NCBI GenBank assembly: GCA_048882505.1
Contig: JBHLRO010000017.1
Coordinates: forward strand, 1 to 32,000
Length of the DNA stretch: 32,000 nucleotides
Origin: Candidatus Thorarchaeota archaeon
GTDB lineage: Archaea > Asgardarchaeota > Heimdallarchaeia > Hodarchaeales > Hodarchaeaceae
Reading direction: 5' to 3'
Part shown: one piece after another, positions 12,026 to 24,686 of the stretch
Position numbering within the stretch: position 1 is the stretch's first letter
Layout: each line of letters starts with the position of its first letter
Position numbers and translations under genes: made by a program
The notes under the pieces: model-generated
Told to the model about the DNA's origin: nothing
Database searches by the model: none
Seen by the model: the letters and a program-made list of their open reading frames with translations, nothing else

Positions 12026-12036
12026 AAAGTTTATAA
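12026..12036 (+). promoter_or_regulatory. Archaeal-type BRE/TATA promoter candidate for the fakA-degV-plsY operon
   Basis: AAAG-TTTATAA about 50 nt upstream of the TTG at 12087. Confidence 0.55.
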
Positions 12037-12086: not shown

Positions 12087-13112
12087 TTGGAGTCGGTTCT
12101 TGAGATGGTTCTTCAAGAATTCGCTCAAAGCCTGTTACCAGATGTAATCTCTGGCGAAGATTTGTACTGCATGTTGAAATTGGCATCACAGAAGCTAGAG
12201 AAATTTATTGATATCCTTAATGATGTTAACGTGTTTCCTGTACCTGATGGGGATACAGGATTTAATATGCATCAAACTTTTAAATCTATTATCAAGGAAC
12301 TGAATAATTTAGAGATTTACAATAATTTTGGCAAGGTTATCAGCGCAGCATCAAAAGGAGCATTTTTCGGTAGCATAGGAAACTCTGGTATAATTCTAGC
12401 GGAATATTTCCACGGTTTGGAGCAAGAATGGAATGATTTCGACAGCATTGGTAGAGAGGTACTTTCTAGCGGATTATTTTCAGGGGCAAAATGTGCCTAC
12501 CAAGCGGTTGAAAATCCCAGGGAAGGAACGATTCTGACCATAGCCAGAATAATAGCGGAAACCGCAAATGAATGGCAGCATACGGTCAAATCACCTTTTG
12601 AATTACTGTATATTGTACTCGAGGAGGCCAAAGCAGCTTTATTAGACACTCACAGAATTTTGCCTCAGGCAAATCTTGCGGGAGTCGTAGATGCGGGAGC
12701 TATGGGCTTAATGCTCATTTTTGAGGGATTCGTAGAGGGAATGGTGGATAGATTTCCATCGGACGTTCTGCCATTACATGTAATCGACGACGATCTTGCT
12801 CCCTTTTTAAAACCAAGAATTGATTTCTCAATGACTGAACAACAATTCGAAGTAATCTTCAGAATCTCTGGCTTAAAGAAATCTATTGAATTCTTAAAAG
12901 CCAAACTGAAAAAGGAAGGCACATGCGTTCTGGTCTTAACTAAAGAATCGATCTCCAAAATCAAAGTTCATATCCACTGTAAAGATCCTGATATGGTCAT
13001 TTCCAAAGTGAGAGATTATGTGAGTCGAGTAGAGGTCGATTCTATTAAATCCCTGAATGAACAGAATTATCTGCTAGCAAAACGCATCAGATCCAAAGTA
13101 GCGGGGGATTGA
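12087..13112 (+). CDS. fakA: DAK2-domain fatty acid kinase catalytic subunit (FakA/YloV-like), short form lacking the C-terminal domain
   Basis: LNDVNVFPVPDGDTGFNM, GSIGNSGIILAEYF, AYQAVENPREGTILT, AGVVDAGAMGL, and middle-domain KVHIHCKDP (HxH). Start is TTG 12087 or ATG 12105. Confidence 0.85.
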   Translation: MESVLEMVLQEFAQSLLPDVISGEDLYCMLKLASQKLEKFIDILNDVNVFPVPDGDTGFNMHQTFKSIIKELNNLEIYNNFGKVISAASKGAFFGSIGNSGIILAEYFHGLEQEWNDFDSIGREVLSSGLFSGAKCAYQAVENPREGTILTIARIIAETANEWQHTVKSPFELLYIVLEEAKAALLDTHRILPQANLAGVVDAGAMGLMLIFEGFVEGMVDRFPSDVLPLHVIDDDLAPFLKPRIDFSMTEQQFEVIFRISGLKKSIEFLKAKLKKEGTCVLVLTKESISKIKVHIHCKDPDMVISKVRDYVSRVEVDSIKSLNEQNYLLAKRIRSKVAGD

Positions 13113-14008
13113 GTACGAAGATTGGCGTTGTATGCGATAGTATGTCTGATTTGCCTCCTAAAGTTTCCGAAAAGCATGGAGTAGTGCTTGTACCAGGCAT
13201 TGTATACATTGATGGAACTCCTTACCAAAGTGGCGTGGATATTCAAGCTGAGGATCTTCAAAAACTTCTAGAAGATGAAACGAAAAACATCCGTACTGGA
13301 GCACCCCCTCCCGCCGCTTATTATAGGGCTTACGAACGCCTATATGACAAGGTCGACATGATTTTAAGTTTGCACTGCCCTATAAAACACTCCGGGATGT
13401 TAAACGCTGCTAAAGCGGCTGCCAGGCGCTTGGATGACTCTTCCAGGATTGTACACTTCGAATGCGGAGTTGCGACAATCGGTTTGGGTATTACAGCAAT
13501 AGCGGCAGCTGCTATCGCGACACGTCAAATTGAGGACAGACAGGAGATCATTCGTCAAGTTCGCGAGTACTGTAAGAAGATCCAGATAGTAGGAACCCTT
13601 GAATCTTTTAAATATCTTCAAAGAAGTGGCAGATTGAAACTGAGAATAGCAGGTTGGATAGCAAGTACCCTATCAGTTAAGCCTGTTCTTTTAATGCGTG
13701 ATTCGGACGTATTTCTGGTCGAGAGACCGCGAAACAGGAAAACGGCATTGAATCTTGTAATTAATTCCTTATCGGAAAATATGGATAGAGAAATGATTCC
13801 ACGAATTGTGGGAATTAGTCATTTTAGATGTGAGAAGGAATTAATTGAAATCGAAGAGAAACTAATGGAAAAGTTGCCCGATTATACGATTATTAGAGGT
13901 TACGCAGATCCAACGGTGGCGGCCAATACTGGACCTGGTTTAATATTGGTTGCTTACTTCGCTGAAACGGGAAATAAACCCAGAAAAGGAATTAAGGTTA
14001 ATGTTTGA
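13109..14008 (+). CDS. degV: DegV/FakB-family fatty-acid-binding protein
   Basis: IGVVCDSMSDLP, YLQRSGRL, LSVKPVL, TVAANTGPG. TTG start overlaps the fakA TGA by 4 nt. Confidence 0.9.
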   Translation: MSTKIGVVCDSMSDLPPKVSEKHGVVLVPGIVYIDGTPYQSGVDIQAEDLQKLLEDETKNIRTGAPPPAAYYRAYERLYDKVDMILSLHCPIKHSGMLNAAKAAARRLDDSSRIVHFECGVATIGLGITAIAAAAIATRQIEDRQEIIRQVREYCKKIQIVGTLESFKYLQRSGRLKLRIAGWIASTLSVKPVLLMRDSDVFLVERPRNRKTALNLVINSLSENMDREMIPRIVGISHFRCEKELIEIEEKLMEKLPDYTIIRGYADPTVAANTGPGLILVAYFAETGNKPRKGIKVNV

Positions 14009-14663
14009 AATCCTAATCGCTGGGACTTTCGGTTACTTAACAGGGTCGATATTCCTATCATATTATTGGGGAAAACTGAATCGAATTGATCTAACACAAG
14101 AGGGCACTGGACAATTAGGTGCATCAAATGCGGGGAGGACTTTTGGGTGGCCTATAATGGTAATCGTTGGCATATCTGATATATTAAAAGCCACAATAGC
14201 TCTAGCAATCCTAACTTTTGTTTTTAACGATTTTATCGGGTCCCAATATTATGATGGAATACTGATTGTTGGCAGTCTAGGAATTGTTTTTGGTCACGTT
14301 AACTCCTTTTGGATCTGGTTAGAAAAGCACAATTGGCATGGTGGAAAGGGAGGCTCCTCGCTCGGGGGAATTCTTTTGTTTCTATCCCTGGAGAGCTTTT
14401 TAATCTTGTTTATTGGCCTGATGCTCACGTTGAAGATACTGAAAAGGTACCTATTAAACGGAAACTGGTACGAAAATTTTTCTACAAATGCGATTGTGGT
14501 TTTATTTTCTCCCTTTGTCATTCTTTGGTTTACGGGGAACAGCACGTATTTCGTTTTGGTGCTTTTAATTATTGGTACAATTCTTTTCTTTGAAAGGGCA
14601 AAAATTTCGAGTATCCTTGGGAATGTTTTACCTAAGGAAGCAAAAAAGGTATGGGATCAATAG
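14001..14663 (+). CDS. plsY: PlsY-family acyl-phosphate:glycerol-phosphate acyltransferase
   Basis: GYLTGSI, GTGQLGASNAGRTFG, DILKA, GIVFGH, GGKGGSS and about 7 TM segments. ATG at 14001 overlaps the degV end by 8 nt (track start 13950). Confidence 0.85.
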   Translation: MFEILIAGTFGYLTGSIFLSYYWGKLNRIDLTQEGTGQLGASNAGRTFGWPIMVIVGISDILKATIALAILTFVFNDFIGSQYYDGILIVGSLGIVFGHVNSFWIWLEKHNWHGGKGGSSLGGILLFLSLESFLILFIGLMLTLKILKRYLLNGNWYENFSTNAIVVLFSPFVILWFTGNSTYFVLVLLIIGTILFFERAKISSILGNVLPKEAKKVWDQ

Positions 14664-14726: not shown

Positions 14727-15521
14727 ATGAGCATAGAGCGCGCAATCTATGAAATAAAAACCAAACACGGTACTGCCCGTTTGATAAACGAAACTGTCGA
14801 TCGGCGGGGCTCTCCTGTTCTTTTTGTTCACGGATTTGGTAGTTCGCCAAGGATTTGGTTTAAGTACCCGGATAGTCTTGGAAAATTCTTCCTGAAAAAA
14901 GAGGAATTAGACGTATGGAGTTTGGGATTATCAAATGCGATTAGCGGTGACATTGAAATCCTTGCACAGGAAGATCTCTATGCTTCATTGGTTTTTATAT
15001 ATAAGAGGGATAAAAAACGTATTCATATCATAGCTCATAGCATAGGGGGAATAATTGTGCGATATCTATTATGCCCCCATTTTGATCATTTTTCGTTTAA
15101 CGCTGAAGACCTTGTTAGCGGGGTGTCTCTTCTCTCGGTGCCAAATCATGGAACGAACAAGTTTAAGAGCGATAGAATTTGGAACATGATGAGTCTTATT
15201 ACGAACTACATCAGCTTTAATCGATTATTCGTTCAGGTACTTAGATCAAGTAAATTAATTGGCTCATTAAACCGCCATAAGCCATGTTTGAATCCAAAAA
15301 TCAAATGGCAAAACGCTATCAGTACGTTTGACAATCTAATTGAACCAGAAAGCATGAGATTTGCGGAGGAAGATATGACTGATATAGAAATTGAACAACG
15401 AGAGTTTCCGTGTGACCATATTGTTTATCCCTTGAAATGGCTTTTCGCTGATAATTATCCACCTATACATAGGTATTCGCCTGTTGCTGAATGGATCTAT
15501 GAAAATTTCTTTATAAAATAA
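14727..15521 (+). CDS. Alpha/beta-hydrolase, lipase/esterase type, no signal peptide
   Basis: VLFVHGFGSS (oxyanion), IAHSIGG (nucleophile), LLSVPNHGT, FDNLI (Asp) and CDHIV (His). Confidence 0.8.
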   Translation: MSIERAIYEIKTKHGTARLINETVDRRGSPVLFVHGFGSSPRIWFKYPDSLGKFFLKKEELDVWSLGLSNAISGDIEILAQEDLYASLVFIYKRDKKRIHIIAHSIGGIIVRYLLCPHFDHFSFNAEDLVSGVSLLSVPNHGTNKFKSDRIWNMMSLITNYISFNRLFVQVLRSSKLIGSLNRHKPCLNPKIKWQNAISTFDNLIEPESMRFAEEDMTDIEIEQREFPCDHIVYPLKWLFADNYPPIHRYSPVAEWIYENFFIK

Positions 15522-17012: not shown

Positions 17013-17825
17013 CTATTCGCCTTCGAGAAACGACATTACGATAGCATTAAACTCGTCGGGACGTTCTAACGGTAAAACGTGAGACGTACCTGGGCCGTCG
17101 ATTTGGTGATATCGTGCCCCTGAAATGGCGTCAGCTACACGACGACACACCCATGGCGGCGTCAATCGATCACGTTCGCCACAAATAACTAGTGTCGGCG
17201 CTTTAACACCACCTAGGCGACTCAATGTATCATGCTTAACGTAAGCGTCCGCTTGTCTTTCGTAAGCCTCAGGACTCTGAGGATTCGGGTTGGAGGCAAG
17301 CATTTGAAGAGTTTGATCAACAGCCTCGGCGTTACGCAAGAAAGTATCGGAGAACAGCCACAGAAACTGTTGGGCTGCGAAAGTAAGTCCCTTCTTATCG
17401 TATGACTTAACGAAATTCCATACTGAAATTGGATCGAACTTTGCGTGACTATTATCTGCGCTCGTACCAGTCACTATTAGCTTGTCAAGTCGGTCAGGAT
17501 GTCTCAATGCAAACTCCTGCGCGATCATTCCACCCATAGATATGCCTAAAACGCTAGCACGATCGATCTTCAGACCGTTGAGTAATGTAACTACGTCATC
17601 AGCCATGTCTGCGATAGTGTACGAGCCATTAGCTTGGGAACTGCGGCCTACATCGCGGTTGTCGAAAACGATAACTTGATAGTTTTTTGAAAATGCTGGG
17701 ATCTGGTATAGACCCCAGAGCGTTGCGTCGTATCCGATGCCCATGATCAGAATCAGAGGGGACCCCTCTCCATGAACTTCGTAATACAAACTTTGACCAT
17801 TTGATTCAATCTTTCCACTTCTCAT
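17013..17825 (-). CDS. Alpha/beta-hydrolase (enol-lactone hydrolase/esterase-like)
   Basis: PLILIMGIG, FDNRDVGRS, GISMGGMIA, GERDRL and TSHVLPLERP. Confidence 0.85.
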   Translation of the reverse strand: MRSGKIESNGQSLYYEVHGEGSPLILIMGIGYDATLWGLYQIPAFSKNYQVIVFDNRDVGRSSQANGSYTIADMADDVVTLLNGLKIDRASVLGISMGGMIAQEFALRHPDRLDKLIVTGTSADNSHAKFDPISVWNFVKSYDKKGLTFAAQQFLWLFSDTFLRNAEAVDQTLQMLASNPNPQSPEAYERQADAYVKHDTLSRLGGVKAPTLVICGERDRLTPPWVCRRVADAISGARYHQIDGPGTSHVLPLERPDEFNAIVMSFLEGE

Positions 17826-17891
17826 CTTTTGTTCACTGTTCCTCTATTTTATTCTATTAATTCGCCATTATTTCTAGCCACTTTTCACGCC

Positions 17892-19322
17892 TTAGGAAGT
17901 CGGCTTGATATTCCTGTTCAAACGGAAGAAGTTTGAGGGATCGTATTTTTTCTTCAGTGCAGAGAGGCGATCGAGTTTCGTTGAACCATATGTGGTTTGG
18001 ACTCTATCATCGCCTTCGTCATCACTTTGGAAGTTGATATAGGCACCACCAACTGAGAACGGTTGAAGATCTTCCCAAAGTCCACGTGTCCATTTGATAT
18101 GCTTTTCTGATTCGTTTGGATCTGTCCACGCACAGCTGATGATAAGCGAATAGGCGGCATTACGGTGACTGTATGCTGTTGCATCTTCATCAATGCGACT
18201 TACTGCACCACCAAGGTGAAATCCTAAAATTACCGTTTTACTTGATGAGATTTTTGAGCCATGAGCGATCAATGTATCAATCATGTCATCACTAAATGGA
18301 GGTAGGAATTCGGATTTGATATAATAGTACCATCCTTTTGGGGCTGAAACATCCAGTAAGGACTGGAGCGTTCTGAAAGGTTTTGGGCCAATTGCATCAA
18401 CCAGGGGTTTTCCCCATTTTCTCAAAGGGGCAAGGAGTTTTTCACCCTCTTCAACTGAACCTGAATATAAAGCGATAATGCCTACTACTGGCTTACCATG
18501 AACTTCTTTAGGTAAGAAGGGTACAGGAGGAGCTATTCGGAGTAATGGTGCAACCGTAAGTTCATCGGGCGCATCAGCAATGAAATCACGATAGAAGCTT
18601 AGAAATTCCTTTGCTTCAGCCATGGGGTGGAGTAGCATTCCGCCAAGAACGGTAGGACCCACTGGTACGAGCTTATATTCGAATGAGGTGATAATACCGA
18701 AGTTACCGCCCCCACCACGAATCCCCCAGAATAGATCTTGATGGTCAGTTTCACTTGCTGTAAGGAATTCACCATCAGCTGTAACTATATCTACGGATAT
18801 AAGGTTGTCACACGTAAGTTGATATCTGCGTGAAAGCCATCCAAAGCCTCCACCAAGCGTTAAGCCAGCAATACCGGTTGTCGTCACGATGCCAGCTGGA
18901 ACAACAAGACCAAATACCTGGGTTTCACGATCAAGGTCTCCTAGAGTGGCACCAGCTTGAGCACGTACAGTTTTGGCCTTGGGATCAACACGAACTCCTT
19001 TCATGAGTGAGAGATCTATCAACATCCCATCATCACATAAAGAAGTTCCAGCTACATTGTGTCCACCGCCTCGAACGGATACTAAGAGATCATGTTCGCG
19101 CGCGAACTTTATCGCGTCAATTACATCCCCTGGATTACTACATCGGACAATAATTGCGGGACGTTTATCAATCATAGCATTCCAGATCTTACGTACCTCG
19201 TCATAATCTTCATGGGAAGGTAGAAGTACGTCCCCTTTGATCAATCCTCGCAATTTCTCAATCGCATCTTCAGCGAGGAAGATCTCCTTCTGTGTGAATG
19301 TCATACTCTTTATTTTCGACAT
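17892..19322 (-). CDS. FAD-linked oxidoreductase, berberine-bridge-enzyme-like (VAO/PCMH family)
   Basis: VRGGGHNVAG (covalent-FAD His), GIAGLTLGGGFGW, DLFWGIRGGGGNFGIIT, and C-terminal YINF...KKKYDPSNFFRLNRNI. Confidence 0.9.
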   Translation of the reverse strand: MSKIKSMTFTQKEIFLAEDAIEKLRGLIKGDVLLPSHEDYDEVRKIWNAMIDKRPAIIVRCSNPGDVIDAIKFAREHDLLVSVRGGGHNVAGTSLCDDGMLIDLSLMKGVRVDPKAKTVRAQAGATLGDLDRETQVFGLVVPAGIVTTTGIAGLTLGGGFGWLSRRYQLTCDNLISVDIVTADGEFLTASETDHQDLFWGIRGGGGNFGIITSFEYKLVPVGPTVLGGMLLHPMAEAKEFLSFYRDFIADAPDELTVAPLLRIAPPVPFLPKEVHGKPVVGIIALYSGSVEEGEKLLAPLRKWGKPLVDAIGPKPFRTLQSLLDVSAPKGWYYYIKSEFLPPFSDDMIDTLIAHGSKISSSKTVILGFHLGGAVSRIDEDATAYSHRNAAYSLIISCAWTDPNESEKHIKWTRGLWEDLQPFSVGGAYINFQSDDEGDDRVQTTYGSTKLDRLSALKKKYDPSNFFRLNRNIKPTS

Positions 19323-19755
19323 TTTACTCGTTTTTCGGAAAACAATAGTTAACTAGTTCTTGATTTTCGTGCGATTCTCGAAAGAAAGGGGGCATTATGC
19401 TATGGAATCGATGCATTCTACCATTTTTTCTTCGCGTTTCTGCAGGGATATAGCAGAACTAATATCGGCGGAAAACAGCATCCACTCTTTATTACCCAAA
19501 ACCTCGCATTTTGAGAAAGAAGTCAAGTTTTTCTGAATATTTCATGGGAGTAACTCCATCTTTAGACGTCTGCAGTAAAGATATGGGTTTTTTTGCTGGA
19601 ACCATTCTCATTCTGTAGAACAGTAGTAGAACTTCTGGTTCTGAAGTCCGATCAATCCATCGAAAATAAAATTTGATCGACTAATAACGCGAAACACATT
19701 ACAAGAAATGTATAAATAACGGGATGCATATTCTTGGGACGAAACCATTAATAAA

Positions 19756-20469
19756 ATGCACTTCCAGGTGTTTCACATGGACGATCGCGTTAAGATATTA
19801 CTCCTAATGATCTTCTACCTTCCAATCGTTTCTGTAGTTTTCAGTGCGTTGGTTCTCATCCCAGCTAATGATTTTGCTTGGCTTGAAGGCTGGTTCTTTA
19901 TCATTATCTTTTTAGGCTATGCTTTCCTGTACATTTTCTATTCTCTCATTAAAGATCCGGACATATTATTAAAAAGAGGCAAATATTTCACAGATAACCC
20001 AGAAACTCACTCATTCCCTGATAGAGCCTTCATGATCTTTGGTTTGGTCGTGTTTGGTTTTATCGTAATTTTTCCTGGAGTTGAGCATGCATCTAAAATC
20101 TCCCCTCTCCCTTGGTATCTCGAGCTTCTTGGATTTATCGGATTTATAATTGGGCTCATTGGAATCACGTATGTTAACAAGGTGAACAGGTATGCTTCAA
20201 AAGGTCTTGTCATTCACAAGGATCATGAATTGATCACTTCTGGCCCGTATCAATATGTTCGACATCCGATGTATGCGATCGCCGCAATCATGGTAATTTG
20301 TATACCTTTGGCTCTGGGATCGTTGATCGCTTTTCTGGTTTCCTTGTTATTTCCAATCCTATTACTTTTCAGGATACGAATTGAGGAAGATATGCTGATG
20401 AATCACTTGGCAGGATACAAGGAATATATGGAACAGGTCAAATACCGCCTCATTCCGAAAATTTATTAG
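19756..20469 (+). CDS. ICMT/Ste14/PEMT-family membrane methyltransferase
   Basis: LITSGPYQYVRHPMY, RIRIEEDML, YKEYMEQVKYRLIP and several TM helices. Start may be 19777. Confidence 0.85.
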   Translation: MHFQVFHMDDRVKILLLMIFYLPIVSVVFSALVLIPANDFAWLEGWFFIIIFLGYAFLYIFYSLIKDPDILLKRGKYFTDNPETHSFPDRAFMIFGLVVFGFIVIFPGVEHASKISPLPWYLELLGFIGFIIGLIGITYVNKVNRYASKGLVIHKDHELITSGPYQYVRHPMYAIAAIMVICIPLALGSLIAFLVSLLFPILLLFRIRIEEDMLMNHLAGYKEYMEQVKYRLIPKIY

Positions 20470-20617
20470 AACTGGTAAATTTTCCAAAATCAAATCAATA
20501 TGAAGACCTGCATTGAGGATCATACCCACAGTTTAAATCTTAGTAAATCAGCTAAGAGGATCTTAAATAACTTTTTAGCCATCTAAAAAGGGATTAAATC
20601 AAGAGCGAATAATTTGG

Positions 20618-21403
20618 TTAAACGCTTTCTTTTACAAAGGCGAGCTGGCGTCCAAGGGCAACAATCTTTCCTTCCTCACTCCAAAGCTGGATGTCTGTTT
20701 CCGAAAGACCGTTCGTAATGAAGCGAGATTTGGAGACAAAACCCAAGTTCTTACCCTTGGGAATGTCTCTAATCTGAACTGTTAACTCAAGCGTGGGAAC
20801 CCATGCTAGAGGTCCAGTTTTTCGTAGGATGGGAGGAGGGGTTGCATCCACGAACAACAGCACTGCCAGACCATCCAGTGGACGATTATCCTGAAAACCG
20901 AAGTAACCTGAAAAACCCAGTTCTTTCCCTTCTTCTCCTCTTAGCCAGTCTAATTGCTCGCTAGGGACTGAAAGTTTCACCTGCTTGAAAAAAGGGATTG
21001 GAACATCGGACATCTCCACACAAACGGATGGATCAGGTAACATCGGCCATTCTTGGACCGAAGTCAGCCCGTTAAATGAACCTCTTTGAGTAAACATTCC
21101 TGTATAAGAAATAACTACAGCCTGGTTCTGGATTAACGAAATATTCATGGTGATAGTCCTTTTGCTACGTATGATGCGATCAATGATCAAATCAGCATGA
21201 CCTGGCGATGTTGGTTTATGGAAATACGCCGTCATTGACAGAGGGATCTTGTAGTCGGAGACGGTCGAAATAACTTTCCCTGCTATTGCCATTAAGTATC
21301 CCCCATTCGGAGCAACGATGTTCCAGTCACTCGAGATTTCCGTCATAAATCGGTTTTCTCCCTTACTCTCCACATGAATATCTTGATCGAATTTAAATTC
21401 CAT
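20618..21403 (-). CDS. Double hot-dog acyl-CoA thioesterase (TesB-like family)
   Basis: WNIVAPNGGYLMAIA, LFVDATPP, WVPTLELTVQIR and SEEGKIVALGRQL. Confidence 0.8.
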   Translation of the reverse strand: MEFKFDQDIHVESKGENRFMTEISSDWNIVAPNGGYLMAIAGKVISTVSDYKIPLSMTAYFHKPTSPGHADLIIDRIIRSKRTITMNISLIQNQAVVISYTGMFTQRGSFNGLTSVQEWPMLPDPSVCVEMSDVPIPFFKQVKLSVPSEQLDWLRGEEGKELGFSGYFGFQDNRPLDGLAVLLFVDATPPPILRKTGPLAWVPTLELTVQIRDIPKGKNLGFVSKSRFITNGLSETDIQLWSEEGKIVALGRQLAFVKESV

Positions 21404-21505
21404 AAACGGCCATCCTGCTATAAACAGTTGGATAAAAGTTTATATTTTATCAATTCCCTCCTATCAATAAAGAATCTCGATTTTTACGTATAGAAATCCA
21501 GGTTC

Positions 21506-21706
21506 TCATCCATAACTCTTGACAAGACTTATAAATTTCTGCGAAATGGACCTTTTTTCAAGAATCAAGAGAAAAAGCCCATAAGAAGATACCACTATAA
21601 TTGTAATTAAGTAAGCGAGTATTTTCAAATCCAAGAAGAGAGGTACGCTAGCCACGATAGCAAAATTATAGGCAGGAGGGTTATGGCCAATTAAGTTTAG
21701 TATCAT
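21506..21706 (-). pseudogene. 66-aa ORF homologous to the C-terminal third of 21805-22455 (truncated tandem duplicate)
   Basis: IGHNPP vs IGHNLP; LFLDLKILAYLI vs LFLEIKLLFYLI; YGLFLLILEKRSISQKF vs YGITLIALEKTSISDKF. Confidence 0.6.
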
Positions 21707-21804
21707 CAGATTTCTTCTCCGATGTCATGGTTTCAAAAAGTAACCAGTCAGGTGAGTCGAGTTTTTTTCAGTTCCCCCTATTGGTCAAAAGACTTGATGC
21801 GGAT

Positions 21805-22455
21805 CTAAATCACCTTGTTATCCGACGCGTGACTCTTCAAATAACGGGCAAATTTATCTGATATAGAAGTTTTTTCAAGAGCAATTAGGGTAATTCCGTA
21901 AACTATAACCATTGTTATGAGTATTAGGTAAAAGAGCAGTTTAATTTCCAGGAAAAGAAAAACATTATCTACTGATACCATGTTAATAAAGGGAAGATTA
22001 TGCCCGATCCCTATTAATACAATTACATTGGCGAAAATTGCTGGAATGACAGCCTTCCGATCTTTCCCAAAATACCAACCTATCAAAATTCCAGATAATA
22101 GCATTATTGGAATAATAGGAAATATCACGCGTTCTCCGAAATCGGAGGGCAAGGTTCTCGTTTCTATCAATTCTGCTATTGAATAGGTTTTCTCGGAAAA
22201 AAGGGTCACCAAATCGACTAAAATCATAGGAATGGAGAATAGGGTCAAAAATTTGATTAGATTACGTACATTAAAAGCCTCAAAGATCGTGAGATAGGCC
22301 CAGGCCAAAAATAAACCAGTCAAAGCCCCAATAATTAACGCGAAGGGGAGAATGAAAAAGATATCCGCAATAAATAGAAAATGCAGCAATATGAAGATGA
22401 ATGAAGTTATTATTCCTGCTATTGTTCCTGAAACAAGGAAAGAAGACGAGTTCAT
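21805..22455 (-). CDS. Uncharacterised multi-pass membrane protein
   Basis: About 6 hydrophobic segments in a 216-aa clean ORF. Confidence 0.7.
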   Translation of the reverse strand: MNSSSFLVSGTIAGIITSFIFILLHFLFIADIFFILPFALIIGALTGLFLAWAYLTIFEAFNVRNLIKFLTLFSIPMILVDLVTLFSEKTYSIAELIETRTLPSDFGERVIFPIIPIMLLSGILIGWYFGKDRKAVIPAIFANVIVLIGIGHNLPFINMVSVDNVFLFLEIKLLFYLILITMVIVYGITLIALEKTSISDKFARYLKSHASDNKVI

Positions 22456-22653
22456 CTGCCTGTATTCATTAGTTTTATATGATATAAATAGCAGACTGTT
22501 TTATTCCTCGTAAGGCTTGTGACAACCAAAACTTGGATATTGCAGGTTTTTAATGCAATAGAGTGATGGCAGATACACAATTACGATAAAGATGGCAGAA
22601 AACTTATAATTGGAAATCGAGCTTTTACCGCTTCGGTGTGGAAGATGAGGAGA

Positions 22654-23520
22654 ATGAAACTATCGGGACTGGTAGTAGTCCTTTTTCTCCTTATATTATC
22701 AGCTGGGACGGCATTTGCCGCTAGCGTGCCAACAGAAGGCGTAGTTACAGAAGGGGTTGGGGTACCTGGAATAGCACTAGGTTTTACCAGGGCTGAGGTT
22801 ATAACCAGTTATGGGCCTCCGACCCATTGTCAAGGCATATATAGCGATTTCTGTCATTATGACTTACCTGAGGGCGACATTTTCATTCATTATTCGGGGC
22901 CAAACGGGGGAAACGTGACGGGAACGGATGAAGACGTTCTCCATCAAGTTTATTGGTATCGGCTTAGCGGTTGGGTAACAACAGCTGGTGTCAATACCGA
23001 TCTGGCGCTAGAGAACCCTGATGCGGTCATCGCCGCCTATCCAAACGCCATTGTGACCTACAATCAGTTCGGGCAAATCCTTAGCGTGACAGATTACCCG
23101 CTTGGCATCGCGGTTGACTGGGTGCGTACTCTATACCCATTACCCTCCGTGCAAACTCGGATAAGGGTTTTTTACCCCAGGGATCCACCCGTTCCCCCCG
23201 AACCCACTTTACACTCATCCTGGATCGCCTTGCGTGTCCATCGTAATCGTGTGGAGGCATCTGTTTGGGTGAATGACATACACAATGGTTCTGGAGTAGA
23301 AGGGGCAGTTGTTTCAGCGACTTGGACCTTACCTAAAGGCCGCACAATGGCCGTGACAGGAACTACCAACAATTATGGTGAGGTTTTGTTTGAGATAAAA
23401 AAATCACATGGTACCTACGTTTTTACCATTGATGACATTACAAAAGAGGGTTATGTCTTCGATGCCGATAACAGCGTGTTAAGTGCCCAAATCGAAGTGA
23501 CGGGAAAGGGTGGAAACTAA
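22654..23520 (+). CDS. Secreted protein with signal peptide and C-terminal Ig-like beta-sandwich
   Basis: MKLSGLVVVLFLLILSAGTAFA signal peptide after GAGGAGA. Pro-rich linker PRDPPVPPEP. GAVVSATW...GTTNNYGEV...GTYVFTIDDITKEGY resembles Ig-like modules of secreted enzymes. Track start is 22636. Confidence 0.7.
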   Translation: MKLSGLVVVLFLLILSAGTAFAASVPTEGVVTEGVGVPGIALGFTRAEVITSYGPPTHCQGIYSDFCHYDLPEGDIFIHYSGPNGGNVTGTDEDVLHQVYWYRLSGWVTTAGVNTDLALENPDAVIAAYPNAIVTYNQFGQILSVTDYPLGIAVDWVRTLYPLPSVQTRIRVFYPRDPPVPPEPTLHSSWIALRVHRNRVEASVWVNDIHNGSGVEGAVVSATWTLPKGRTMAVTGTTNNYGEVLFEIKKSHGTYVFTIDDITKEGYVFDADNSVLSAQIEVTGKGGN

Positions 23521-23696
23521 CACCGTCGCGTACCGTAAAGAGATCCGCTTTAACGATACATCTGGGAGTTTTTGCATCGATCTTAGGTGCAGCAGTATTA
23601 GTTAATCTTGCTGGTTGAGGGAACCAAATCCTTACAAATTTGGGGACCGGAAATTATCCGCCTTTGACAAACAGGAGAGAGGTATATAGGAGTCTT

Positions 23697-24686
23697 TCAT
23701 CTTTTGTAAGGTGATTTCTTTATTAAGCTCCTTTTTATGAAGGGACCAATGAAGAACATTAATAGTCGATTTAATATATTGGGTTTCTCTTTATCTCTTA
23801 GGTATTGATCGTAAGTAATATTTTGATATTGTAAAACCTCTTGTGATTCTGTTGTATCCATCCAGTGAGTATAATACCAATCAGAATCCGACTGTGCTTG
23901 TTTGAACACATCTTCTGGCATTCCCCTCATACCCATATCTTCTAAAAATGGAAAGATAAATTCTTTTTGATATAATTGACATCCTTTTCCTCCACCTCCA
24001 AAAAATATTCTTTTCACAGCACGATCGTTGCCTAGTGCATTAACCATTGCACGTGCCGCATCATATGTATGGATTGCCTCAACTTTTTGTTCTAACGGTA
24101 TTCCAAACAGAAATTCTAGTGCAACATCATCCAATCCCCCTCTTGGTTGACCTTCAGTCTCGACTGCAAGGATTGCTCCAAAGCGGACGATAGTCCAATT
24201 CAATTTACAGTCGTAAATATATTCTTCACACTCTACTTTATGGTGAGTGTAATTATCAGTTGGCTTTAGGGGATCAGTGACTTTTAATGGAGGATTAGTC
24301 GGTTTTTGAGGACCGTGAACCGAGACCGAACTGGCAAAAGCAAAATGTTTTATATCTGAAAATGCTTCCGCTTCTTCAATAAGGTTTTTAGTTCCCGTTA
24401 CGTTTACTTTTTTTGCTAATTCAGGATTTTGTTCTGAGGGAGGTGGTATAATTGCGGCAGTATGAATTATCCCTTCTATCCCTTCTAATGCATTTCTTAT
24501 AGAATTTTTATCAAGAATATCTCCCCAAAACACCTCCATTTTTGGAGTGTCCTTATATTTTTCAAATCTTATTTCCGTCATTTTTGACTTAATATCAAAA
24601 CAACGCATTTCATGTCCCTGTTTGGCAAGTTCCTTGATGCATGAAGTGCCTAAGTTCCCAAAAGCTCCTGTTAGAAGAATTTTCAT
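23697..24686 (-). CDS. Extended SDR, NAD-dependent epimerase/dehydratase (3-beta-HSD-like)
   Basis: ILLTGAFGNLG, HTAAII, VNVTGTKNL, ASSVSVHG and YTHHK (YxxxK). Confidence 0.85.
   Translation of the reverse strand: MKILLTGAFGNLGTSCIKELAKQGHEMRCFDIKSKMTEIRFEKYKDTPKMEVFWGDILDKNSIRNALEGIEGIIHTAAIIPPPSEQNPELAKKVNVTGTKNLIEEAEAFSDIKHFAFASSVSVHGPQKPTNPPLKVTDPLKPTDNYTHHKVECEEYIYDCKLNWTIVRFGAILAVETEGQPRGGLDDVALEFLFGIPLEQKVEAIHTYDAARAMVNALGNDRAVKRIFFGGGGKGCQLYQKEFIFPFLEDMGMRGMPEDVFKQAQSDSDWYYTHWMDTTESQEVLQYQNITYDQYLRDKEKPNILNRLLMFFIGPFIKRSLIKKSPYKR

Follow-up and report, generated by a model that had tools for sequence, protein, structure and literature searches.

In bacteria, the gene of the membrane acyltransferase PlsY lies apart from those of the fatty-acid kinase components FakA and FakB. 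The closest described counterpart of the system dealt with here is the FakA/FakB to PlsY route of Firmicutes (Staphylococcus aureus, Streptococcus suis, Bacillus subtilis; PDB 7rm7, 7w7h, 4x9x, 5xj5), which draws on the same three protein families. In Anaerolineae, two fusions of PlsY with DegV are known (Bellilinea, Thermanaerothrix) and have been read as channelling the labile acyl-phosphate (Li et al. 2017, PMC5700162). PlsY homologues have also been reported in metagenome-assembled genomes (MAGs) of Loki-, Thor- and Heimdallarchaeota (Manoharan 2019, PMC6737245; Coleman 2019, PMC6431249), the archaeal protein being treated as an orphan without an acyl-phosphate source, with PlsX missing, and its role in lipids having been doubted by Coleman et al. 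(PMC6431249). The present analysis concerns a stretch of 32,000 nucleotides from a member of the Hodarchaeales (Asgard; assembly GCA_048882505.1, contig JBHLRO010000017.1, positions 1 to 32,000)—hereafter the window—in which four closely spaced genes of the + strand encode a short FakA, a DegV/FakB, a PlsY-like acyltransferase and a lipase-like hydrolase. The order Hodarchaeales counts among the archaeal groups placed nearest to eukaryotes. Among the papers searched, none was found that links Asgard archaea to DegV, FakB or fatty acid kinase, or that describes the rebuilt PlsY pocket reported below.

A putative fatty-acid cassette in Hodarchaeales

The reading put forward here, with a probability of roughly 0.6, is that the locus is an accessory Hodarchaeales cassette feeding free fatty acids into membrane lipid. 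Its layout is as follows:

12030..12036, + strand: TATA-box-like TTTATAA, read from the sequence, ~50 nucleotides 5' of the first cassette gene
12087..13112, + strand: short FakA-type kinase subunit (FakA_NL), 341 amino acids; PF02734, PF21645
13109..14008, + strand: DegV/FakB-type fatty-acid-binding protein, 299 amino acids; PF02645; start overlapping the FakA stop by 4 nucleotides
14001..14663, + strand: PlsY-like membrane acyltransferase, 220 amino acids from the ATG at 14001; PF02660; start overlapping the DegV stop by 8 nucleotides
14727..15521, + strand: divergent alpha/beta serine hydrolase, 264 amino acids; weak Pfam matches; 64 nucleotides 3' of PlsY

The two overlaps, FakA/DegV and DegV/PlsY, as read from the sequence, leave the first three genes translationally coupled, and these are adjacent and in the same order in all ten related loci, down to 47% identity. 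The cassette FakA_NL-DegV-PlsY(-hydrolase) is thus probably a single operon, TTTATAA being a possible archaeal promoter. Concerning the PlsY-like gene, the initial annotation had taken its frame from the TTG at 13950; database relatives start at the ATG used above. The best matches in the databases come from Asgard MAGs and carry the labels Heimdall-, Hod-, Hermod- or Promethearchaeota.

According to the proposed pathway, the DegV/FakB protein would bind a free fatty acid, which the adjacent hydrolase may release from an ester; the short FakA, consisting of the ATP-binding and middle domains, would phosphorylate the bound acid to acyl-phosphate; and the PlsY-like membrane enzyme would use this acyl-phosphate to acylate a phosphorylated hydroxyl acceptor on the cytoplasmic side. 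What we infer here is the reaction as such, the part played by the hydrolase and the nature of the acceptor.

The PlsY-like enzyme and its donor site

Protein families were assigned with Pfam and NCBIfam models. The PlsY-like protein, the single PF02660 match of the window's genome, scores 80 bits against that family (gathering cut-off 24.1) and stays below the cut-off of the PlsY equivalog TIGR00023 (68.8 bits vs 137.2). Its AlphaFold2 (AF2) model, with a predicted local distance difference test (pLDDT) value of 93.4, is aligned by Foldseek to the Aquifex PlsY structures 5xj5-5xj8 with template modelling (TM) scores of 0.74-0.83; only PlsY structures were retrieved, with no other fold at E < 1, and the protein thus has the seven-helix fold of the family, at 24% identity to Aquifex PlsY. 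An exhaustive HMMER search places it in an isolated subfamily, with five representatives below E 1e-25 and the next one at 2.5e-13.

All residue changes discussed below are given in Aquifex PlsY numbering, based on the alignment to 5xj5 and then on the comparison of the 17 members of the PlsY-like clade (46-100% identity) with 121 other PlsY representatives. In Aquifex PlsY, acyl-phosphate is held by the backbone amides of K104-A107, by His92 and by the hydroxyl of Thr41 (Li et al. 2017, PMC5700162), the T41S mutant retaining about half of the activity (PMC5700162). These elements are kept in the window protein—His99 for H92, Ser42 for the hydroxyl of T41, and the GGKGG loop—and are all invariant in the clade; R45, K104 and the Asp and Lys of the DxxK of motif 2 are also kept. 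Judged from this alignment, the donor site is conserved and the acceptor site is rebuilt. Since the cassette encodes its own fatty-acid kinase and the acyl-phosphate site of the PlsY-like enzyme is preserved, acyl-phosphate is the expected donor. The initial annotation had proposed a non-canonical acyl donor or acceptor: a changed acceptor, or a change in how the acceptor is held, is plausible, the altered donor is unsupported, given the retained H92, the T41 hydroxyl in the form of Ser and the GGKG loop, and nothing points to the isoprenoid or branched acids it had considered.

The rebuilt acceptor pocket

The features in which the acceptor side departs from other PlsYs are the following:

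14103..14129, + strand: motif 1, GTGQLGASN, with S35T, N37Q and T41S; R45 follows and is kept
14307..14360, + strand: lengthened loop FWIWLEKHNWH (+5 residues, clade-specific), then GGKGGSS at 14340-14360; K104 kept, V106 replaced by Gly
14457..14489, + strand: 9-residue insertion NGNWYENFS (Tyr and Asn invariant), clade-specific, then Asn163 at the S142 position
14586..14618, + strand: motif 3 region, FFERAKISSIL, with H177 replaced by Glu, N180 by Lys and R183 by Ser

The pocket for glycerol-3-phosphate (G3P) in Aquifex PlsY is built from Ser35, Arg45, Lys104 and Asn180, which bind the phosphate, and from Ser142 and His177, which bind the 2-hydroxyl; Asn37 touches neither substrate and was proposed as an oxyanion stabiliser (PMC5700162). 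The motif strings quoted in the initial annotation for both proteins (DegV TGAPPP and AANTGPG; PlsY GTGQLGASN, GGKGGSS and FFERAKISSIL) are all present at their places. It took these PlsY positions to contact the glycerol-phosphate; the G3P pocket, however, is made up of S35, R45, K104, N180, S142 and H177 only, N37 is not part of it, and GGKG belongs mainly to the acyl-phosphate 'phosphate hole' formed by backbone amides.

Within the clade, S35 is Thr in all 17 members (elsewhere Ser in 99/121 and Thr in 20/121), N37 is Gln in 16 of the 17 and in none of the 121 others, and T41 is Ser (Ser in 41/121 others); S35T and T41S are ordinary variants. V106 is Gly in 16/17, the position being hydrophobic in other PlsYs. 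S142 is occupied by Asn throughout the clade (17/17), a residue seen in 7/121 others and shared with canonical Heimdall PlsYs. Two further positions belong to motif 3: H177 is Glu in 16 members and Asp in one (His in 109 and Glu in 1 of the 121), and N180 is invariably Lys (17/17; Asn in 99/121, Lys in 0/121), with R183 nearby being Ser in 13/17 (Arg in 89/121). The 9-residue insertion is missing in 115-120 of the 121 other PlsYs, depending on the column. The G3P pocket thus keeps its Arg and Lys, with S35T, N180K, S142N and H177E fixed in 16-17 of the 17 members. The alignment of orthologues suggested in the initial annotation therefore bears out fixation in an archaeal clade for the G3P-pocket residues (17/17 or 16/17), and the changes are essentially absent from the other 121 representatives, as they are from canonical PlsYs in sister Heimdall families.

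The effects of such changes are known from Aquifex PlsY, where H177E leaves 1% of the activity with the Km increased 30-fold, V106G leaves 4% and S35T 17%, and every N180 mutant tested loses >95% of the activity; across 7,288 PlsY homologues, His177 is conserved in 91% and Asn180 in 89%, Glu and Lys not being among the listed alternatives (PMC5700162). Acceptor-pocket changes that are fixed together, while the corresponding Aquifex mutants are nearly inactive, argue for a different binding solution. With the R45 and K104 clamp kept and N180 now Lys, the acceptor would still be phosphate-bearing and glycerol-phosphate-like, whereas the replacement of His177 by Glu and the two new loops suggest that it is held unlike G3P in bacterial PlsY, or that it is a different molecule. 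Possible acceptors would be glycerol-1-phosphate (G1P), G3P bound in another pose, or some larger phospho-alcohol or lyso-lipid. A more specific proposal, which has to be regarded as speculative and somewhat unlikely, is that the cassette ester-links scavenged fatty acids to G1P or to an ether lyso-lipid, giving hybrid ester/ether or heterochiral lipids, with the Glu198/Lys201 pocket setting the acceptor specificity.

It is also possible, and may be held tentatively, that the PlsY-like enzyme has an ordinary PlsY function, still acylating sn-G3P (and G1P), with Glu/Lys, Gln37 and Gly106 representing the same pocket co-evolved along a long branch. The retained R45 and K104 phosphate clamp would fit this, the Lys at N180 being also phosphate-friendly, and the H-to-E and N-to-K changes, three residues from each other in a single helix, compensate each other in charge. 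Canonical bacterial PlsY, moreover, accepts both G1P and G3P and is relaxed on backbone chirality (PMC13400652), so that the use of G1P alone requires no rebuilt pocket and a compensated pocket stays alive as an explanation. What speaks against an ordinary function is the strong conservation of His177 and Asn180 among the 7,288 homologues, with neither Glu nor Lys listed, the nearly dead H177E mutant, the two clade-specific insertions flanking the pocket and the TIGR00023 score (68.8 vs 137.2); sister Heimdall lineages, in addition, retain the canonical residues within the same cellular chemistry.

Selection on the cassette genes

Compared with the nearest relative (dS 0.18-0.33), the ratio of non-synonymous to synonymous substitution rates (dN/dS) is 0.12 for FakA, 0.07 for DegV, 0.19 for PlsY and 0.08 for the hydrolase, and with more distant relatives it is 0.05-0.14; the values of 0.11-0.19 for the PlsY-like gene indicate purifying selection. 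The deviant PlsY-like residues are invariant at 46-100% identity and the reading frames are intact. Simple decay of genes with deviant motifs, the alternative named in the initial annotation, might be invoked from the scores of PlsY, FakA and FakB1, all below the curated equivalog cut-offs, and from the patchy occurrence of the cassette within the genus. It is refuted by the clade-wide fixation together with the dN/dS of 0.07-0.19, and is hardly credible in view of the intact frames, the similarly low ratios over larger distances and the two confident AF2 models; conservation by very recent common descent is excluded by dS values above 1.4.

The short FakA kinase subunit

The short FakA gives 103.8 bits with PF02734, 35.5 bits with PF21645 (the middle domain) and 119.6 bits with S. 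aureus FakA_N, while only positions 3-310 of the 530-549-position models TIGR03599 and NF038248 are matched. The motifs PVPDGDTG (12237-12260) and GNSG are retained, DGDTG and GNSG aligning with their counterparts, so that the Dak2/DhaL ATP-binding domain of FakA is present; the HxH of the middle domain (12969-12977) is retained both here and in all members compared. The Cys of the FakA zinc finger (S. suis; PMC10848957), also called 'catalytic' (S. aureus C240, S. suis C244), is replaced by Glu255 (12849-12851). The eight operon-type loci that were compared (L002, L005-L010 and the window) share this Glu, whereas the fused forms of the sister family described below retain both the Cys and the HxH.

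The protein ends after the middle domain and thus has no C-terminal DegV-like FakB-binding domain, and no match to PF13684 (the FakA C domain) was found across the 94.5%-complete genome of the window. In S. aureus, FakA_NL retains activity in vitro although it has no C domain, with a Km for FakB ~10-fold higher (PMC9136124), so that a short FakA can work. Short FakA forms of 314-345 amino acids beside DegV are common across Heimdallarchaeia (genomes G024-G060), and Dak2-only forms of about 215-250 amino acids occur in one Heimdallarchaeia family.

The DegV/FakB fatty-acid-binding protein

The single DegV of the window's genome matches PF02645 with 168 bits and TIGR00762 with 188.8 bits (cut-off 99.7), being below the FakB1 equivalog NF038249 (87.9 bits vs a cut-off of 350). 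Its AF2 model (pLDDT 90.3) gives Foldseek TM scores of 0.8-0.88 with fatty-acid-loaded DegV/FakB structures. The positions corresponding to the ligand site are the following:

13295..13312, + strand: TGAPPP (amino acids 63-68); Thr63, equivalent to FakB1 Thr62, is kept, and the next S-Q is replaced by G-A
13388..13396, + strand: H-S-G; Ser95, equivalent to FakB1 Ser95, a carboxylate ligand
13622..13636, + strand: RSGRL; Ser173 and Arg175, equivalents of FakB1 Ser171 and of the catalytically required Arg173
13919..13939, + strand: AANTGPG (amino acids 271-277); Asn273 in place of FakB1 His270

In FakB1, the network runs Ser171-His270-Thr62-carboxylate-Ser95, with the catalytic Arg173 in addition (PMC8892158). 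The Thr, both Ser and the Arg are retained in the window protein. Among the 19 members of the DegV clade the Thr is invariant, as is the Arg (19/19, and 106/106 in background DegVs), while at the position of FakB1 Ser95 the window's subclade has Ser and its sister subclade Thr. The His270 position is the variable one, with Asn in 11, His in 6 and Tyr in 2 clade members, compared with His in 105/106 background DegVs; the sister subclade retains His. Since Asn is still able to hydrogen-bond, the His-to-Asn change is read as a tolerated variant and not as evidence for a new ligand.

The DegV changes are thus weaker than those of PlsY. As to the contacts with the carboxylate claimed in the initial annotation, Thr62 and His270 do belong to the network, and nothing was found to indicate that the S, Q or S in TSQPS touches the ligand. 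The His-to-Asn replacement did not prove to be fixed, and the idea of a concerted change in the two proteins fails as well: DegV orthologues with Asn, His or Tyr all carry the same Glu/Lys-type PlsY, so that the His-bearing ones in particular show the DegV and PlsY changes not to be concerted.

That the window DegV might be a split-off C domain of FakA was also considered and ruled out, given its full-length DegV match (168 bits) and its fold resembling ligand-binding FakB, FakA_C ranking 48th in the Foldseek search with a TM of 0.35. The nearest organism-named relatives outside Asgard are labelled Anaerolineae or Ardenticatenaceae. Two other Heimdall families (G024-G060) have 5-17 DegV copies per genome, the window's genus 0-2.

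Distribution and evolutionary relationships

The motif pair was found, among 185,579 species genomes scanned, only in 10 Asgard MAG loci with Hod or Heimdall labels, including Candidatus Hodarchaeum mangrovi. Of 21 congeneric genomes, the same 9 carry all three core genes and the remaining 12—one of them a closed genome 96% complete—carry none, and this all-or-none co-occurrence indicates that the cassette is accessory and travels as one block. A sister family within the same taxonomic order has PlsY fused N-terminally to Dak2 and FakA_M (585-587 amino acids; P0038, P0048); in genomes the PlsY-FakA fusion is one open frame of 585-602 amino acids (G022, G023; L011, L012, L034), followed by the DegV gene. 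In the PlsY part of these fused forms, residue 35 is Thr, residue 177 is acidic (Asp) and the loop insertion is present, as in the window's clade, while Asn37 is kept.

The phylogeny was explored with a quick tree, whose library representatives are unlabelled, so that it is uninformative on a bacterial donor. The fused forms and the window's clade are grouped together on a long stem (SH-like approximate likelihood-ratio test, SH-aLRT, 99), and this group nests, with a weak support of 85, among canonical Heimdall PlsYs, a position that would also suit an ordinary PlsY function. The canonical PlsYs sampled from other Heimdall families keep S35, N37, H177, N180 and R183 and are not located beside FakA or DegV. 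Another Heimdall family (L023, L028, L035, L036; G047, G037, G031) possesses several very divergent PlsY paralogues, with Lys104 replaced by Gln or Arg and His177 by Lys, Ser or Arg, some of them <2 kb from a DegV gene.

The accessory distribution (9/21 congeners) could be taken to mean that the cassette handles fatty acids without making membrane phospholipid, for example to detoxify or buffer free fatty acids, or to acylate a head group or an acceptor other than a lipid. The PlsY-like protein would then be an acyl-phosphate-consuming transferase of a different type. The negative charge of Glu198 at the site of the glycerol 2-hydroxyl would suit an amine- or polyol-bearing acceptor, and the 5-17 DegV copies of other Heimdall families suggest roles beyond lipid entry. 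Such a function seems improbable, given that all known activity of the PlsY family is acyl transfer from acyl-phosphate to glycerol-phosphate, that the Arg/Lys phosphate clamp is retained and that no neighbouring gene suggests another acceptor, the flanks varying between loci.

Supply of substrates

No PlsX was found in the window's genome (94.5% complete), so that Fak is the only visible source of acyl-phosphate. On the acceptor side, the same genome contains G1P dehydrogenase (G1PDH)-type iron-containing alcohol dehydrogenase (Fe-ADH) candidates, a GGGPS-type gene and a glycerol kinase. Glycerol kinase is above the curated cut-off in 19 of the 22 genomes of the genus, including that of the window, and PlsC-type acyltransferases are present in 22/22; GpsA was not found in the 22 genomes. 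An ordinary PlsY function could draw on both, G3P being expected from the kinase and the second acylation from the PlsC-type enzymes. The presence of the cassette, nevertheless, does not co-vary with GlpK or with PlsC-type acyltransferases, and the substrate supply does not discriminate between the acceptor candidates. In eight genomes of the genus, the bona fide glycerol kinase (about 700-730 bits) is accompanied by another GlpK-like paralogue that scores about 460-480 bits and so stays under the cut-off; six of these eight also carry the Fak-PlsY cassette.

The serine hydrolase and neighbouring genes

The hydrolase at 14727-15521 shows weak matches to PF00561, PF12697, DUF676 and PGAP1, and no characterised family was matched. 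Its recognisable element is the following:

about 15033-15050, + strand: AHSIGG, nucleophile elbow of the hydrolase, from the sequence

It follows PlsY in six of the ten related loci, at 80-95% identity (66-89% for PlsY), being the most conserved gene of the cassette (dN/dS 0.05-0.08), and may be a candidate esterase/lipase supplying free fatty acid. At a distant locus (L038:4212-4829), a different alpha/beta hydrolase, of the phospholipase/carboxylesterase type, is found directly upstream of FakA. The more distant cassettes have unrelated flanks, with a P-type ATPase, GTPases and a leucine-rich repeat (LRR) protein, which do not hint at the acceptor.

Other genes with links to lipids or esters are present in the window, within 10 kb of the cassette:

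17013-17825: PcaD-like alpha/beta hydrolase
17892-19322: BBE-type FAD oxidase
19756-20469: ICMT/PEMT-like membrane methyltransferase
20618-21403: acyl-CoA thioesterase II-like protein
23697-24686: 3-beta-HSD/epimerase-type SDR

Among these genes of the region 17013-24686, just the PcaD-like hydrolase and the BBE oxidase are syntenic in the nearest relative (L042).

Weight of the proposed pathway

Several points weigh against the cassette as a route of free fatty acids into membrane lipid. With the short FakA having no FakB-docking domain and its zinc-finger Cys replaced by Glu, kinase competence is assumed, and since most congeners do not have the cassette, it is not a core membrane pathway. 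The assignment of E198 and K201 to the pocket rests on the alignment to 5xj5, and H177E and N180K could, as a charge-compensated pair, rebind the same G3P. The hydrolase, whose family is unclear, is linked in just 6/10 loci. Finally, the only Asgard lipidomics found cited, on a cultured Lokiarchaeote, is stated, second-hand, to have yielded archaeal lipids only (from PMC13400652).

Comparison with known systems

Discussions of the 'lipid divide', and of how eukaryotes acquired bacterial-type membranes, have long drawn on Asgard PlsY genes. Through the operon and the fusion, PlsY is physically linked to a fatty-acid kinase that would supply the missing donor, and one lineage has rebuilt the acceptor pocket under selection. 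The three proteins constitute a small, cloneable system in which to ask what phospho-alcohol receives the acyl group, and in which chirality; the answer would help to decide if archaea closely related to eukaryotes produce ester lipids, and would reveal the specificity residues of PlsY, an antibacterial target.

With the Firmicute Fak-PlsY route, the cassette shares the same predicted logic, from fatty acid through acyl-phosphate to acyl transfer at the membrane. Kept here are the ATP motifs and the HxH of FakA, the equivalents of FakB Thr62, Ser95, Ser171 and Arg173, and the acyl-phosphate site of PlsY; the differences concern the archaeal host, the coupling of three genes in one cassette, the Asn for the His of the FakB network, the rebuilt acceptor pocket of PlsY and the fact that no PlsX was found. 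Compared with Aquifex aeolicus PlsY (PMC5700162), the seven-helix fold, R45, H92, K104, the GGKG loop and the DxxK are common to both, whereas S35T, N37Q, V106G, S142N, H177E, N180K, R183S and the insertions of 5 and 9 residues distinguish the window protein. The published canonical Asgard PlsYs share with it the Asgard host and the Asn at the S142 position, and the two are, judging from the quick tree (support 85), probably of the same ancestral lineage; the canonical proteins sampled from other Heimdall families, however, have a standard pocket and are encoded apart from FakA and DegV, while the PlsY-like protein of the window has the rebuilt pocket and belongs to a cassette. PlsY is physically tied to part of the Fak system also in the PlsY-DegV fusions of Anaerolineae, where the partner is DegV and the host bacterial; in the window the link is an operon, and the sister family has PlsY fused to the kinase subunit instead of DegV.

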